Assembly (NCBI RefSeq): GCF_000027125.1
Contig: NC_017626.1
Length of the DNA stretch: 64,000 nucleotides
DNA from: Escherichia coli 042
GTDB taxonomy: Bacteria; Pseudomonadota; Gammaproteobacteria; Enterobacterales; Enterobacteriaceae
Direction: 5' to 3' (one strand)
The notes under the pieces were generated by a model. The model was given only the letters and a program-made list of their open reading frames with translations, made no database searches and was not told where the DNA came from. This document shows, piece by piece, positions 22,033 through 41,850 of the stretch. The stretch's first letter is position 1; the number at the start of each line of letters is the position of its first letter. The position numbers and the translations under genes were made by a program.

Positions 22033-22055
22033 AAGGCCCATTCGGGCCTTTTTTA
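22033..22055 (+). terminator. Rho-independent terminator after ydeA (shared convergent terminator with marC)
   Basis: Stem aggccc/gggcct followed by TTTTTT. Confidence 0.6.
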
Positions 22056-22718
22056 GTGGTACGTTTTAATGATTTCCAGGATGCCGTTAATAATAAACTG
22101 CACCCCCATACATACCAGCAGGAATCCCATCAGACGGGAGATCGCTTCAATGCCCCCCTTACCCACCAGCCGCATAATTGCGCCAGAGCTGCGTAGACTT
22201 CCCCACAAAATAACCGCCACCAGGAAAAAGATCAGCGGCGGCGCAACCATCAGTACCCAATCAGCAAAGGTTGAACTCTGACGCACTGTGGACGCCGAGC
22301 TAATAATCATCGCTATGGTTCCCGGACCGGCGGTACTTGGCATTGCCAGTGGTACAAAAGCAATATTGGCGCTGGGTTCATCTTCCAGCTCTTCCGACTT
22401 GCTTTTCGCTTCCGGTGAATCAATTGCTTTCTGTTGCGGAAAGAGCATTCGAAAACCGATAAACGCGACGATTAAGCCGCCTGCAATTCGCAGACCGGGA
22501 ATCGAAATGCCAAATGTATCCATCACCAGTTGCCCGGCGTAATACGCCACCATCATGATGGCAAAGACGTACACCGAGGCCATCAACGACTGACGATTAC
22601 GTTCGGCACTGTTCATGTTGCCTGCCAGGCCAAGAAATAACGCGACAGTTGTTAATGGGTTAGCTAACGGTAGTAACACCACCAGCCCCAGGCCAATTGC
22701 TTTAAATAAATCTAACAT
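22053..22718 (-). CDS. marC: MarC-family inner membrane protein
   Basis: 221-aa membrane ORF divergent from marRAB. Confidence 0.9.
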
Positions 22719-22831
22719 TGGTGGTTGTTATCCTGTGTATCTGGGTTATCAGCGAAAAGTATAAGGGGTAAACAACGATAAAGTGTCACTCTTTAGCTAG
22801 CCTTGCATCGCACTGACCAAAACTTGAACCG

Positions 22832-36226: not shown

Positions 36227-36340
36227 ATGAACAGCATACTGATAATCACTTCTCTCCTTATCATATTCAGCATTTTTAGTCATGCCCTAATAAAATTAGG
36301 GATTGGCATATCCAATAACCCAGACAAAACCGATGTATAA
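36227..36340 (+). CDS. Candidate 37-aa hydrophobic small protein
   Basis: ATG preceded by GAGG at -9; encodes [37 protein letters not shown] (single predicted TM helix). Confidence 0.3.
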
Positions 36341-36408
36341 GTCAACATATCCTGAATCAGACATACAATATCGCAATGAAAATCAATAATATTTTAAGGA
36401 ATATCTTC

Positions 36409-36642
36409 ATGAAATCAAAAGACACCCTAAAGTGGTTCCCTGCGCAGCTTCCTGAAGTAAGAATTATCCTAGGGGATGCTGTAGTGGAAGTAGCAAAACA
36501 GGGAAGACCTATTAATACCAGAACATTGCTTGATTACATTGAAGGAAACATAAAGAAAAAATCATGGCTGGATAACAAAGAATTATTACAAACAGCGATA
36601 TCAGTTCTTAAAGACAACCAAAATTTAAATGGTAAAATGTAA
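36409..36642 (+). CDS. ydfK: Prophage small protein YdfK
   Basis: 77 aa from MKSKDTLKWFPAQLPE...; AAGGA RBS 8 nt upstream. Confidence 0.8.
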   Translation: MKSKDTLKWFPAQLPEVRIILGDAVVEVAKQGRPINTRTLLDYIEGNIKKKSWLDNKELLQTAISVLKDNQNLNGKM

Positions 36643-36959
36643 TATAATAAACTTACTTTTTTATCATTTTTCCACTTTAACAACATTTTGCTCCACTTTT
36701 CCACGTCCAAACAACTTGAAATCTGGTTAAAATAACACGCAACACTATTCTTCTTCCTTGAGCCCGCCCGGAACTCGAAAAACAAACCGAGTTAAAGCCA
36801 TTTTTCACAAAATCGATTTTGGGTCTCACCAAAAATTACGGGGTTGCATACGCATTCGTTTATTTTCGAACGTGTACATACAAATATGCACAAAAATAAT
36901 CATAATTATTTTCTGAGATGCATTATGATATGAACACCAATTTCGAATAGAGTCTCACT

Positions 36960-37550
36960 ATGTCTCGAATTTTTGCTTACTGTCGGATATCAACGCTGGA
37001 TCAGACCACCGAAAATCAACGCCGGGAAATCGAAAGTGCAGGTTTTAAAATCAAACCTCAGCAAATAATCGAAGAACACATTAGCGGCTCAGCAGCAACC
37101 AGTGAGCGTCCTGGTTTTAACCGGTTGCTTGCTCGCCTGAAATGTGGTGATCAATTGATTGTGACAAAACTGGATCGCCTTGGTTGTAATGCAATGGATA
37201 TCAGGAAAACAGTGGAACAACTGACCGAAACAGGTATCAGAGTGCATTGCTTAGCATTGGGTGGCATTGACCTGACCAGTCCAACAGGAAAAATGATGAT
37301 GCAAGTAATTTCAGCAGTCGCTGAATTTGAACGAGACCTTTTACTTGAACGCACTCATTCCGGGATAGTAAGAGCCCGCGGCGCAGGGAAACGTTTTGGT
37401 CGACCACCTGTGTTAAATGAAGAACAGAAACAGGTGGTATTCGAACGAATTAAGTCAGGTGTAAGTATAAGTGCCATTGCCCGGGAATTCAAAACCTCGC
37501 GGCAAACCATTTTAAGAGCCAAAGCAAAACTTCAGACACCTGACATATAA
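36960..37550 (+). CDS. pinQ: Serine recombinase, DNA invertase (Pin/Gin/Hin family)
   Basis: 196-aa ORF with the catalytic Ser region ([15 protein letters not shown]) and a C-terminal HTH. Confidence 0.9.
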
Positions 37551-37647
37551 AAAATAATCTCGGTGTGAGATGCTTTACGTGTTCCAAGCCCCCTTCCTTG
37601 CCGTAAATGGAAAGATACATCTAATTATAGAATTTATATGTTTTACC

Positions 37648-38223
37648 CTACGGCAGTGCTGGCCATTCAATATCCTGTGCAGTTGACGTATCAACACGGT
37701 TCAGCAATACCCGATACTTTTTCCATGCTTCCAGCAACGAGATTTCTTCCTCCGTTGCAATTTCCAGATCTGCAGCATCCTGAAGCGGCGCAATATGCTC
37801 ACTGGCTACCTGCATCAGGTTGTTTTTTGTTTCTTCCGCCTCCCGGATCCGGAACAGTTTTTCTGCTTCCGTATCCTTCACCCAGGCTGTGCCGTTCCAC
37901 TTCTGAAACTCCCCTTCCGGCGATAACCAGGTAACATTTTCCGGTAACGGACCGAGTTCAGAAATAAATAACGCGTCGCCGGAAGCCACGTCATAGACGG
38001 TTTTTCCCCGATGATCTTCAACGAGATGCCACGATGCCTCATCACTGTTGAAAACAGCCACGAAGCCTGCCGGAATATCTGGCGGTGCAATATCGGTACT
38101 GTTTGCTGGCAGACCTGTATGAGGCGGAATATATGCGTCACCTTCACCAATAAATTCATTAGTTCCGGCCAGCAGATTATAAATTTTTATGGTCTGTGGT
38201 TGTTCACTCATTCTGAATGCCAT
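37648..38223 (-). CDS. tfaQ: Tail fibre assembly chaperone
   Basis: 191-aa ORF immediately downstream of stf, Tfa family. Confidence 0.88.
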
Positions 38224-41192
38224 TATGCAAGCCTCACAATATAGTTAAATGCGATGTTTTTGACGGTGTTTTCCGCGTTACCAGCAGCGTTAACGGTGAT
38301 GGTGTGTCCATGTGAACCAATCGCAACGGAGTGCGTATGAGCACCAATACCGACAGTATGTGCATGTGCGCCTGCGCTTGCAGCAGTGCCGGACAGCGAG
38401 TGGGTATGAGCACCATCTGATGATGTCTTCCCTGCATTACGAGTCTGGCCACTACCGCTTGTTGTGCTCATAATCCCCGCGCTTAGATTTGAAATCGCGG
38501 TATAACCATTAGGGAAAATGCTCGTGTTCGTGCCACCAAATGCACCGGAACTCTTGTGTTGGTGCGCACCGGCACTATTTGCAGTCCCGCTAATACTATG
38601 GGTATGCGCCCCGGTGTTATTCGTGGATTTGGTTCCGTAATCAAACGACGATGTGTTTTTCGTCCCCAAATCCGTACTGGATGCGCTGGCGCTGTGGGTG
38701 TGCGATTTAATGCCGTCCTGTTCCTGAGACAATACGGCACGACCACTGGCGGGTTTGCCCTTAATCGTCCAGCCACGCATATCAGGGATCACGCCTGACG
38801 GATAAGCGGCTGCAAGTTTCGGGTATGCAGATTTGTCAAAAGTCTGCCCCTGCATCAGGGCATAGCCAGACGGAACGGTATCTGATGGCCACGGGATTGG
38901 TGCGCCAGGCGGATAAAACTGCTCTGATGGCGTATAGAGTGAATAAACTGTACCGTCCGTTAACCCTTCCGGCTTATTAGCAGAATATGCTGGTGACGTA
39001 TGAATCGTCACGCTGGCATTACTGGTATAATCCCATTGAATATTTACACCAGTCGCATAATTTCCGATTGCAACGTAAATATCGTAAGTATCACCAGATG
39101 TATTGACCCAGGCAAAATTTGTAAACCCTGTCGATGTGCGCTGCCATAAAGCACCAGTAATCCCCTTCGGATTACCATTACCTGCACGCAAAACAAGTTC
39201 AGATATACCTGCCTGTTGAGGTGACCCCACGTTAAATCCCGCGCCACCAATCAACGTAATTGAAACAACAGAACTCGCCTGTGGCATGGTTACCGTTGCT
39301 AATTTGAACCAACCAGCACCACCGCTGAATGACATTGTTGTTGAGTTAAGCGTACCAATATCTTTCGGCGTCAGTGTTATATCCGCTGAAAGCGCCTTAC
39401 CATTCACCTTACGGGCAGAAGGTACCCGACCATTCGCATTATCATTAGCTGCTTTCACTGCTTTCGGTGTCGCGGCAAGCGTTTCAGATGCGCTGTTGGT
39501 TGCACTACTGAGCTGGACAATTCCTTTTTGTGCTGTCGTAGCGTTCTGAGCAGTATATTTCCCGTTAGCAAGGTCATAGGCTGCCTTTACCGACTTTGGC
39601 GTTGCCGCCAGCATTTCAGATGTGCTGTTGGTCGCGTTGCTAAGCTGAACTATCCCTTTCTGTGCTGTCGTTGCATCCTGTGCGGTGTATTTCCCGTTAG
39701 CCAGCTCATACGCGGCCTTAACGGCTTTTGGTGTTGCCGCCAGTGACTCGGAAGTGCTGTTAGTCGCACTGCTGAGCTGTACTATCCCCTTTTTCGTCGT
39801 GCTCGCATCCTCAAGCGCGACGGCGGATGCAATATCCTCTGCCCGTTTTGCCGCTGTCTCGGCGCGCGTTGCCGCGGATTCCGCCGTACTTTTGCTCTGA
39901 GCTGCCGCCGTCGCACTGCCAGCTGCCTCTGTCGCCTTCGTGGATGCCGTCGTGGCGCTGCCCTTTGCTGCTGACGCCTGTCTGGTCGCCTCATCTTTTG
40001 AAGCAGACGCAGATAATGCCGATGACGCCGCCGAACTGGCGGACGATGCGGCAGCCGTTTTTGAGGATTCTGCGCTGGTTTCCGACGCTTTCGCGTTCGT
40101 CTCGGATGTCTTCGCTGCGGAAGCAGACCTCGCTGCTGCGCTGGCCTGTACAGCGGCTTCGCCAGCCTTCGTTGTGGCTGTTGAAGCGGACGATGCAGCA
40201 CTTTCTGCCGATTTTCCGGCGGCGGTGGCACTGGCTGAGGCCTGCCCGGCATTTGTTGACGCGGCGCTGGCAGATGAGGCAGCCGCTGTTTTTGAGTCTG
40301 CTGCTGCGGAGGCACTCTGTGCTGCTGCCGTCTCAGAAGACTTAGCGTTCGTCTCGGACGTTTTTGCCGCCTTCGCGGAATTTCCTGCCGCTGTTGCCGA
40401 GGAGGCTGCACTACTGGCGCTCGAGGCTGCGCTCGTTTCTGATGATTTTGCCGCCTCTTTTGAGGCCGCCGCATCCCGGGCTGAGGTGGCAGCTTCTGAC
40501 GCCTTCGTGGTCGCGGCGGATGCAGAAGTGGCTGCTGATTGTTGTGACGCTGCCGCATTCGTTTCTGACGTTTTCGCGGCACTGGCACTGGTAGCTGCCG
40601 CGCTTTTTGAGGACTCTGCAGCGGCAGCACTTTTTGATGCTTCAGTAGCCTTTGTTGATGCCGTTCCTGCGCTGGAAGACGCTGACTGAGCCGACGTCGC
40701 GGCCTGCCCGGCTGATGTGCTGGCTGCACGTGCTGAGCCTGCAGCATCAGTCGCATGGGTTGCCGCCTCACGGGCTGATGTGCTGGCATCGCTGGCTGAC
40801 TTCTTCGCGGCTGCTGTGTTCTGCGCCACTGCGGACGCGTTACGCGCCACCTCTTCCACCATCAGTTCAAAACGGCGCAGTGCCTCAGGACGGGCATCAT
40901 CCTCCGTCATGGCACCGAGAAAATCATTCAGCGTACCGGGTCGGGAATCTTCATACACGGTGATGGTCCCGGCATGTGACGGCGGGAATCCTTCCACCAA
41001 CAGAATAACGCTGTACTGACCGTACTCAACGTCCATGCTGTAACGCCCGGCCTCATCCGGATTTTCTGAGGCCAGCGTGTTCACCACCACCGTGGTGCTG
41101 TTACGTTTTGCTTTCAGCTGGATTGTGCAGTTCTGTACCGGTTTTCCTGTGCCGTCTTTCAGTACACCTGAAATCTTTACTGCCATATTCAC
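38223..41192 (-). CDS. stf: Side tail fibre protein, full length
   Basis: 989-aa ORF: lambda Stf-like N-terminus ([19 protein letters not shown]...), long Ala/Ser/Thr-rich shaft, three tandem 41-aa repeats, His-rich tip (GAHxHS motifs), conserved end ...[18 protein letters not shown]. Confidence 0.88.
39410..39790 (-). repeat. Three tandem ~123-bp coding repeats within stf (approximate coordinates)
   Basis: Protein units [44 protein letters not shown] repeated three times; the DNA repeat is visible directly. Confidence 0.7.
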
Positions 41193-41250
41193 CCCACAAA
41201 AAAGCCCGCCTGAACAGGCGGGCTGTCATAACACTGTGTTACCTGGCTAA

Positions 41251-41850
41251 TCAGAACTTATAACCGACACCCACGATGAAACCGTCAGTGCGCCAGTCGC
41301 CACTGCCGGAGCCTTCATAAGCAATATCAATGGCCACGGATTCGGTCGGGTTAAACTGCACGCCAGCTCCCCACGCCAGAGACGTGTTGCTGTGGCGACC
41401 GTCATCACTTCCGGTCAGCACGTCGTGCGTTTTCCCCTTGTTGTCAGTTACGCGGAGATAATCCCCGGAGAAAGTCGACACACGGCTGTAAGCCACACCC
41501 GCCATCGCATACGCGCTGAACCATTCATTCACGCGCACAGACGGCCCCACCATCACGCTGAACCAGCGGTTACGCACGGAATCTTCATGCCAGCGGGTAT
41601 CGCTGTAACGGGTAAGCTGGCGATTCTTGTCTCCTGCATAGCTGAATGACGTCACCAGCCCCAGTGTGTCCGTAAACTCATAACGGTATTTCACGTTAAT
41701 CCCGTTAAGATCATCGCTGCCGGGAACGTTCGTCGAGGCATGAAGATACCCCGCGCTCAGCGTGGACTGATGTTCAGATGCCCATGCAGGCGCACCGGAT
41801 ACGGCCAGACAAATGGCTGCGGACAAAATGGCGGCATAAAGTTTACGCAT
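41251..41850 (-). CDS. lom: Outer membrane protein Lom (Ail/Lom/OmpX family)
   Basis: 199-aa ORF with signal peptide and beta-barrel pattern ending in a C-terminal Phe; lambda position between J and stf. Confidence 0.88.

Follow-up and report, generated by a model that had tools for sequence, protein, structure and literature searches.

The pin gene beside the tail-fibre genes of an Escherichia coli prophage is probably a tnpR gene left by a decayed Tn3-family transposon

The recombinase genes pinQ and pinR, present in about 40% of complete E. coli genomes and labelled DNA invertases in all annotations, raise the question of the DNA on which their products would act. A gene of this type lies next to the tail-fibre genes in the 64-kb stretch of E. 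coli 042 DNA analyzed here (the window). From a first inspection, the preliminary description had taken its product, Pin, for a Pin-family DNA invertase with no obvious invertible segment, and had proposed that it is an orphan acting in trans on another element or that its crossover sites have diverged so far that the eye misses them. Our analysis leads to another answer, to which we give a probability of roughly 0.7: pin would be the tnpR gene of a decayed Tn3-family transposon and not a tail-fibre invertase gene, it would have no substrate in cis, and its product would probably be defective in recombination.

In the window, the chromosomal genes ydfI and ydfJ give way to ynfT, ydfK, and pin, which belong to one end of the lambdoid prophage occupying the Qin site. 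This arrangement, ydfJ / ynfT-ydfK-pinQ convergent with tfaQ-stfQ, is that of the K-12 PinQ locus, and the Pin protein of the window is identical to K-12 PinQ at 194 of 196 residues. No residue distinguishes it from the Pin of mEp460, 2H10, Tritos, HannyBb, and PhiR63_1, lambdoid phages that form plaques, and the gene order in active phages is int-attP-ydfK-pin, convergent with tfa-stf-J. The positions of the genes and of the other features discussed below are collected in Table 1. As first described, pin is intact and convergent with tfa and stf, the reading frame being complete and both fibre genes lying on the minus strand, and the distance of 97 bp between pin and tfa is exact; a qualification is that residue 76 is a Cys where the family, with every characterized relative, has a catalytic Arg. 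The protein combines the Pfam domains PF00239 (E 2.5e-36) and PF02796 (E 3.8e-11) within 196 residues, which is the architecture of TnpR-type recombinases, whose length is about 185-200 aa.

Table 1. Features of the pin locus in the window and the complete related element (window positions unless another record is named).
Feature	Position	Strand	Description
ydfK/ynaE-family gene	36376-36642	+	upstream of pin, co-directional
Relic res site I	36847-36872	+	CATACGCAT-TCGTTTAT-TTTCGAACG; 9+8+9, 113 nt from ATG
Relic res site II	36887-36918	+	TGCACAAAA-N14-TTTCTGAGA; starts exactly 40 bp after site I
-10-like hexamer TATGAT	36924-36929	+	TATAAT in the 84%-identical transposon copy; between sites II and III; aligned with loci L008 and L091
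Relic res site III	36931-36949	+	TGAACACCAATTTCGAATA
pin (pinQ/pinR type)	36960-37550	+	196-aa small serine recombinase; Pfam Resolvase + HTH_7
Codon 76 of pin	37185-37187	+	TGT (Cys); CGT (Arg) in the transposon copy
pin-tfa gap	37551-37647		97 bp exactly
Relic Tn3-family terminal IR	37559-37593	+	CTCGGTGTGAGATGCTTTACGTGTTCCAAGCCCCC; outer tip 37593; aligned with the IRR of L091
Spacer, IR tip to tfa stop codon	37594-37647		54 bp; context, not transposon-derived
tfa, tail fibre assembly	37648-38223	-	Pfam Caudo_TAP; single-copy, convergent with pin
stf, side tail fibre	38223-41192	-	989 aa; Pfam phage_tail_N, Phage_fiber_2, Collar; single-copy
Complete Tn3-family element	L091 2823-6637 = NZ_CP012499.1 128303-132117 (E. 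coli plasmids)		intact res, both IRs, Arg76

The same colinear ydfK-pin-tfa arrangement was found in about 2,025 E. coli genomes, with no inverted form among the matches listed for them. Both about 2,000 E. coli genomes and active phages carry pin as an intact reading frame, which is nearly invariant. The 54-bp spacer between the transposon end and tfa always accompanies pin; where pin is missing, the shared tfa sequence begins only at about 37659 and runs inward. An empty site, in which the ydfK spacer would be joined directly to the tfa flank, was absent from the 5,426 genomes searched, and the module travels as a unit. In strain MSB1_1D, a break just before the pin ATG was considered as a recombination endpoint and rejected, since it corresponds to an IS1-mediated deletion.

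Does this locus contain an invertible tail-fibre segment? A tblastn search with Tfa and with the N- and C-terminal parts of Stf recovered only tfa and stf themselves on the two strands of the 64-kb window, with no second copy of either gene and no alternative C-terminal cassette for stf, in agreement with the earlier statement that a second, inverted stf'/tfa' cassette is missing. Inverted repeats flanking the tail-fibre genes, searched for in 35600-41400 and over the whole window, did not exceed the chance level, and the longest exact inverted pairs (16-18 nt) are unrelated to pin or stf. Crossover sites of the gix/hix/pix type were sought with a position weight matrix trained on hix and gix half-sites and on the pix sites of e14 as found in MG1655. 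The training half-sites score 12.7-17.9 bits each, so that a genuine site with two halves would score about 28-35 bits. No such site was detected in the 64-kb window, where the best 26-bp site reaches 9.4 bits (the best scores in 20 random windows ranged from 5.8 to 18 bits), nor in the complete mEp460 genome (best 9.7 bits), and the initial impression that there is no convincing 26-bp gix/hix-like pair was therefore correct. The half-site that had been singled out as the closest, AAACCGAGTT, does not lie about 190 bp upstream of pin; it occupies 36784-36793 on the plus strand, 167-176 bp from the ATG. We rejected it as a half-site: it falls below 5 bits per half-site with the same matrix, hence a chance match, and is located outside the transposon-derived segment described below. 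Furthermore, it is the 3' end of pin and not its 5' end that faces tfa, with a transposon end between the two genes. The attributes of a Din invertase, namely crossover sites, an invertible segment and high identity to characterized invertases, are thus all lacking at this locus. The homolog of Erwinia phage LS-2018a (61% identity) is likewise found in a context without an invertible segment, and it has a tripartite res.

The relatives of the protein point in a different direction from that of the invertases. Pin shares 38% identity with PinE and 84% with a Tn3-family TnpR, and its assignment to the Pin family in the preliminary description does not hold. Thousands of homologs with 60-85% identity occur on plasmids (1,858 plasmid records) and in genomes across the Gamma- and Betaproteobacteria, and these close relatives comprise TnpR resolvases of the Tn3 family as well as stand-alone res-resolvase modules. 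The TnpR with 84% identity, found in 792 contig blocks, is encoded divergently from a 994-aa transposase (DDE_Tnp_Tn3, PF01526) with a 160-bp intergenic res between the two genes, the whole being included in a complete, cargo-less Tn3-family element of 3,815 bp with the order IRL, tnpA, res, tnpR, IRR. In its reference copy, IRL spans 2823-2860 and IRR 6600-6637 (CTTAGCGTGGGATATTTTCCGTTTTCCAAGCGGACCCC) of locus L091, and the arms of 53 nt are 96% complementary, with the core GGGGTCCGCTTGGAAAACGGAAAATATCCCACGCTAAG; PGAP labels this element only as "Tn3 family transposase." Of the 80 family loci taken from species-representative genomes, a Tn3-family TnpA gene lies within 3 kb in 24 (15 divergent, 5 downstream, and 4 upstream on the same strand), and the other 56 consist of a stand-alone res and recombinase with no transposase within that distance, one of them near parA on an Erwinia amylovora plasmid. 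The PDB matches of Pin are Gin (105 bits), the γδ resolvase (83 bits), and the Tn3 resolvase (82 bits); by sequence score alone, Pin is therefore slightly closer to Gin than to the γδ resolvase, an observation that counts against a resolvase ancestry. The NCBIfam matches, all far below cutoff (Mpi invertase, 85 bits for a cutoff of 272), and the PHROGs assignment to a generic "DNA invertase" family are uninformative.

In 66 of 77 family loci, the approximately 130 bp preceding the ATG carry a tripartite array. Site I, TGTMCGAAA-N8-TTTCGKACA, is 26 bp long (9+8+9) and starts 113-115 nt from the ATG; in site II, 32 bp long, the same half-sites are separated by 14 bp, and its start lies exactly 40 bp from that of site I in 62 of the 66 loci; beyond it come a TATAAT hexamer and then a shorter site III, TGTACAyCCATTTCGTACA, which adjoins the start codon. 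The half-site TGTMCGAAA resembles that of Tn3 and γδ, and the array is, in its layout, a putative res of the Tn3/γδ type. Moreover, several loci have an identical flank on the tnpA side up to the center of site I and diverge from there on, which fits natural crossovers at site I that would have generated hybrid res sites.

Worn counterparts of the three sites precede pin in the window, with the spacing of the family preserved (Table 1). Relic site I scores 2.1 bits with the family model, compared with a family median of 27.3 bits, and ranks 8th of 63,975 window positions; its right half is homologous to the transposon, and its left half and spacer are not. Relic site II is better preserved, with 8.3 bits for a family median of 27.6 bits, and ranks second of 63,969 window positions. 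One position of site III, 36946, is polymorphic among E. coli copies, with an A here and a T in K-12, Kati, and E69. The six relic half-sites (CATACGCAT, CGTTCGAAA, TGCACAAAA, TCTCAGAAA, TGAACACCA, and TATTCGAAA) do not converge on a new common consensus, and two of them, CGTTCGAAA and TATTCGAAA, share a TTCGAAA core; CGTTCGAAA is a genuine Tn3 site I half-site. Neither the 64-kb window nor the whole mEp460 genome holds an intact res-type site. A consensus promoter scan made no call at the TATGAT hexamer, to which a promoter function may be ascribed by reference to the Tn3-type layout. While the ancestry of the relic sites is clear, their function as a res is doubtful. The earlier suggestion of sites too diverged to be seen by eye was partly right, in that relic sites do exist; they are of the res type and lie directly upstream of pin, at 36847-36949. 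Such sites do not flank the tail-fibre genes, as the crossover sites that had been expected would do.

The extent of the homology delimits a transposon remnant. In a blastn comparison, positions 36864-37589 of the window align with positions 3081-3808 of the transposon with 82% identity over 728 bp, and megablast against all E. coli genomes returned the same aligned span. The homology starts at the right half of site I; at the other end, the blastn alignment stops at 37589, 7 nt before the tip of the element, and a CCCC tip can be recognized by eye at 37590-37593 after a 2-nt gap. Beyond this IR tip the flanks are unrelated. The 64-kb window has neither a tnpA (best tblastn hit, E 0.27) nor another IR, and with a single degenerate IR the window copy is a relic and not a transposon. 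The absence of transposon homology in the left half of site I is consistent with a loss of the tnpA side through an event at the crossover point.

The protein, too, differs from its relatives at one catalytic residue. Residue 76 belongs to the conserved KLDRLGR motif and corresponds to R71 of the Tn3 and γδ resolvases. It is an Arg in 110 of 110 non-phage homologs as well as in the γδ resolvase, Gin, and PinE, and a Cys only in the phage-type clade and in one mosaic cluster. In the Tn3 resolvase, mutations of Y6, R8, S10, D36, R68, or R71 abolish recombination and reduce single-strand cleavage about 1000-fold or more, R71A and R71K both abolishing recombination, and the catalytic mutants keep site I binding and, largely, synapsis (Olorunniji and Stark, PMC2794168). 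Pin retains Y7, R9, S11, and R73; by our reading of the alignment, D36 of Tn3 corresponds to E39 of Pin, which is invariant among the aligned relatives, and with Cys76 the full Tn3 catalytic set is not present. By extrapolation from the Tn3 resolvase mutants, catalysis has probably been lost through the Arg-to-Cys change, and the phage-borne protein would then be unable to perform efficient strand exchange. Overall, PinQ departs from the family at 13 of the 144 conserved (≥95%) positions. In the HTH region, T180S is the only change at such a position, to which V187A is added on the phage branch. When substitutions were polarized by parsimony with nine outgroups, which left 55 sites that could not be polarized, the nonsynonymous-to-synonymous counts were 19:10 on the phage branch versus 4:9 on the transposon branch; this marginally significant difference (Fisher p = 0.049) is a weak indication that constraint may be relaxed or altered on the phage branch. 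Conversely, the near-constancy of an intact reading frame across thousands of genomes and in phages that form plaques suggests that some function is under selection.

Taken together, these data can be arranged in the following scenario. A Tn3-family transposon would have inserted between ydfK and tfa, in the b region of a lambdoid phage, and would since have lost its transposase gene, its other IR and the left half of site I, leaving a remnant at about 36864-37593 that comprises the right half of site I, sites II and III, tnpR, and one IR. In the intact relatives, TnpR dimers are expected to bind the three dyads, with TGTMCGAAA as the half-site, over about 115 bp directly upstream of their own gene; by analogy with Tn3, TnpR would repress its own promoter, and it would resolve cointegrates or multimers through crossover at the center of site I. 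This behavior of the relatives is deduced from the conserved site array, the natural hybrid res sites and the established knowledge on Tn3 and γδ. In the phage copy, every half-site has drifted and the equivalent of R71 is a Cys. If pin descends from a Tn3-type tnpR, the missing invertible tail-fibre segment needs no special explanation, since such a segment would never have been part of this gene's system. The sequences show the Tn3-family ancestry, the make-up of the relic, the lack of a substrate in cis, and the replaced catalytic Arg; that strand exchange is inefficient, and that any remaining action goes through DNA binding, is what we infer from them. As to what maintains the gene, the almost unchanged DNA-binding domain and the widely intact reading frame make a role that is non-catalytic (DNA binding, regulation) or indirect more likely than strand exchange. 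A preprint describes PinR-dependent repression of antioxidant genes, a weak lead to a DNA-binding role.

The published model assigns another function to this protein. PinQ would be an active invertase working in trans, which recombines the pix sites of the 1.8-kb P segment of e14 and thereby leads to a chimeric StfE2 that blocks T2 adsorption. According to Kirigo et al. (NAR 2025, PMC12529663), T2 survivors overproducing PinQ carried a 1797-bp inversion; upon PinQ overproduction, the e14 P segment was 88% inverted versus 26-30% in controls, and the cells were T2 resistant; the inverted segment encodes StfE2, which blocks T2 adsorption; and the effect was abolished by deletion of stfP, stfE, or e14. 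These results support the model, as do the difference of only 2 residues between the window protein and K-12 PinQ and the agreement with the trans action suggested at first. Nevertheless, we judge direct catalysis by PinQ in trans unlikely, in part because of data from the same source. Its Table S4 gives inverted fractions of 30% in the wild type, 22% in ΔpinQ, and 1.5% in ΔpinE, and PinE overproduction gave 49% (PMC12529663). The near absence of inversion in ΔpinE, even though pinQ and pinR are intact, indicates that PinE is required and points to PinE as the catalyst. Furthermore, a reversible invertase should tend toward about 50:50, as PinE does, and a value of 88% rather suggests selection or an indirect effect. 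In the parts of the main text and supplement that we read (PMC12529663), we found neither PinQ assayed in a ΔpinE host, nor a catalytic-serine mutant, nor an in vitro reaction. Three features of the sequences also speak against the model: Cys76 at the R71-equivalent catalytic position; the pix sites, which score about -0.5 bits with the half-site model of the PinQ family and whose half-sites are 6 bp apart instead of 8 bp; and an identity between PinQ and PinE of just 38%. The Gin, Cin, Hin, and Pin enzymes, which do cross-react, are far more alike than PinQ and PinE. Of the initial proposal that Pin acts in trans, there remains its match with the published claim (PMC12529663), and the direct catalysis by PinQ that it implies is doubtful. 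Similarly, pin may still be called an orphan in the sense that no invertible stf/tfa cassette or gix-type site belongs to it, but the premise of a Pin-family invertase was wrong.

A more specific version of the dead-resolvase reading, which we regard as rather improbable, is that PinQ and PinR have been kept for DNA binding and synapsis, either as a weapon against res sites or as a non-catalytic partner of PinE. In the first case, the inactive proteins might act as dominant-negative factors or repressors on the res of related Tn3-family transposons and plasmid modules in Enterobacteria and, if they block intact res sites, might serve as a weapon in conflicts between mobile elements. In the second case, dead PinQ might bias the PinE-catalyzed inversion of the P segment toward the T2-resistant orientation, which would account for both the 88% skew and the dependence on PinE.

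Conversely, PinQ could still be an active resolvase whose res has co-evolved toward a new half-site, for instance of the TTCGAA type; it would then resolve tandem prophages or phage-genome multimers at the site preceding pin. The exactly kept geometry of the three relic sites (40-bp offset, 113 nt from the ATG) and the TTCGAAA core common to two half-sites are in line with this idea. We consider it highly unlikely in view of the six relic half-sites without a new consensus, one of which has a position polymorphic among copies, of the left half of site I, which is not homologous to the family, and of Cys76, which should block catalysis; in addition, at the family-conserved positions of the HTH region only T180S has changed, with V187A added on the phage branch, so that no retargeting is evident. 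Finally, an invertible tail-fibre segment in cis, with crossover sites too diverged to be recognized, can hardly be credited: its only recommendation is that in Mu, P1, and e14, by analogy of position, the invertase gene is found beside tail-fibre genes, and it is opposed by the lack of a second stf/tfa coding segment, of an inverted repeat beyond chance and of any gix-type site in the window or the whole phage genome, by the 3' end of pin facing tfa across a transposon IR, and by the same orientation in about 2,025 genomes, in line with the published BLAST survey, which reports inversions only in e14 (PMC12529663).

The gene, its orphan status and Tn3-family relics as a kind of object are already known. 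By contrast, the searchable literature yielded no account of pinQ/pinR as a Tn3 relic, of the eroded res-type sites or of the Cys that takes the place of R71. The decayed transposon is not a new kind of system and should come as a moderate surprise to specialists. If our interpretation is correct, it answers the long-standing question of why no invertible segment is present, and the annotation of pinQ/pinR as DNA invertases needs to be changed. A 2025 paper builds a new class of anti-phage defense on the assumption of an invertase (PMC12529663). The published PinQ mechanism would then need one simple control before it can stand, and the mechanism of this defense system becomes testable with three simple constructs. 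The locus would also illustrate cleanly how a phage can capture a transposon module and partly domesticate it, and the analysis defines a half-site model for a large, uncharacterized resolvase family on enterobacterial plasmids.

How does Pin compare with the systems already described? With the Fis-dependent invertases Gin of Mu, Cin of P1, Hin of Salmonella, and PinE of e14, it shares fold and size; Gin is its best sequence match in the PDB, and Pin is also encoded beside prophage tail-fibre genes. It differs from them by the low identity to PinE (38%), by the lack of gix, hix, or pix sites and of an invertible segment or alternative cassettes, by the 3' end of its gene facing the fibre genes and by the loss of one catalytic Arg. 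The PinQ anti-T2 system (PMC12529663) involves the same protein, apart from two substitutions, at the same locus; the e14 P segment that it needs is not in the window, which has no pix-like site. The stand-alone res-resolvase modules of plasmids, of the multimer-resolution type, are devoid of a transposase like the window copy, and they keep an intact res and Arg76, neither of which the window copy has kept. Tn3 and γδ (Tn1000) encode, as pin does, a small serine recombinase with a C-terminal HTH_7 domain; in these transposons as in the close relatives of Pin, tnpR is divergent from a DDE_Tnp_Tn3 transposase gene and the res, directly upstream, consists of three dyads with differing spacing. 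The element of the relatives has 38-bp terminal IRs with a GGGG tip, and its tnpR lies beside one IR as in γδ. The similarity of the Tn3 and γδ resolvases to Pin is only moderate, and the site I of the Pin family measures 26 bp (9+8+9), whereas that of Tn3 measures 28 bp. Compared with Tn3 and γδ, the window copy is without tnpA and one IR, its subsites are degenerate and its R71 equivalent is a Cys. The 3.8-kb Tn3-family element, unlike the window copy, is complete and has tnpA and both IRs as well as an intact res and Arg76; the two share 84% identity in TnpR and 82% identity in DNA, the latter over a stretch that starts at the right half of site I and ends 7 nt before the tip.

The relic of the Tn3-family resolvase gene that constitutes pin in the window is always accompanied by a spacer of 54 bp past the tip of the terminal inverted repeat (IR) and by the final few codons of tfa, and prophages that lack pin have tfa in common with the window only inward of about 37659. 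No empty site, i.e. the same junction without the relic, was found among 5,426 genomes, and the block running from ydfK through the relic to the end of tfa is thus a single mosaic module in its behavior. The 204 bp between ydfK and the eroded res array are AT-rich with repeated TTTTCCAC motifs, and no transposon homology was found within them. In other strains, the locus has been affected by IS1, with an IS1B copy inserted between pin and tfa in one case and, in the other, an IS1-linked deletion of pin, tfa and stf that starts 3 bp before the ATG of pin.

Within groups of loci from the Tn3-type family of pin, the flank on the tnpA side is identical as far as the center of res site I and diverges beyond it, a pattern indicating that hybrid res sites arise, and modules are shuffled between elements, by natural crossover at site I. 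The family loci L008-L090 differ in the 8-bp spacer at the center of site I, which is either CCGACCGG or the reverse complement of this, CCGGTCGG. The dinucleotide at its middle, AC or GT, is not palindromic and thus occurs in both polarities relative to the gene, and this polarity may define incompatible subgroups of res. In Erwinia persicina, a Tn3-family terminal IR adjoins the ATG of a pin-family gene in place of its res, and the res of another module seems to have been hit there by insertion of, or recombination with, a related transposon. Furthermore, a prophage pin with 86% identity (P0008) is of the transposon type over a stretch that starts inside res site II and takes in the 5' part of the coding region, including Arg76 (the equivalent of the catalytic Tn3 R71), and of the phage type in the 3' part of the coding region and the 3' flank. 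This composition shows that sequence has been exchanged between transposon and prophage copies of pin.

Positions of the features discussed in the window and at related loci
Feature	Locus or sequence	Position	Remark
Spacer and last tfa codons	window	37594-37660	
ydfK to res relic	window	36643-36846	
stf	window	38223-41192	
Common tnpA-side flank	L014, L024, L033 (+ L015/L017/L019/L020/L029/L034; L025/L035/L041/L045)	~150 nt upstream of recombinase start	
Tn3-family terminal IR	L018	~45 nt upstream of start at 3001	…CTTAGCGTAGGATATTTTCCGTTTTCCAAGCGGACCCC; Erwinia persicina
Mosaic prophage pin	L097	5600-6720	prophage next to prfC/dinI in E. coli
IS1-affected locus	L001 (NZ_AP025220.2)	22043-22740	
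IS1-affected locus	L006 (NZ_LR898868.1)	8108-8805	

According to the published model, PinQ inverts the P segment of e14. In Supplementary Table S4 of that work (PMC12529663), the inverted fraction is 30% in the wild type, 22% in the pinQ deletion and 1.5% in the pinE deletion, and reaches 88% upon overproduction of PinQ and 49% upon overproduction of PinE. Judged from these tabulated percentages, the catalyst of inversion looks like PinE, the e14 invertase, and the skew under PinQ overproduction is greater than the equilibrium expected of a simple invertase.

The stf gene of the window is full length, its product of 989 residues containing three Phage_fiber_2 repeats as well as a long repeat region rich in Ala and Ser, and the tail and head module of the prophage is colinear with other strains over at least 24 kb. 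In contrast, stfQ of K-12 is cut down to 963 bp and adjoins nohA, and the prophage in the window is thus far less decayed than K-12 Qin.
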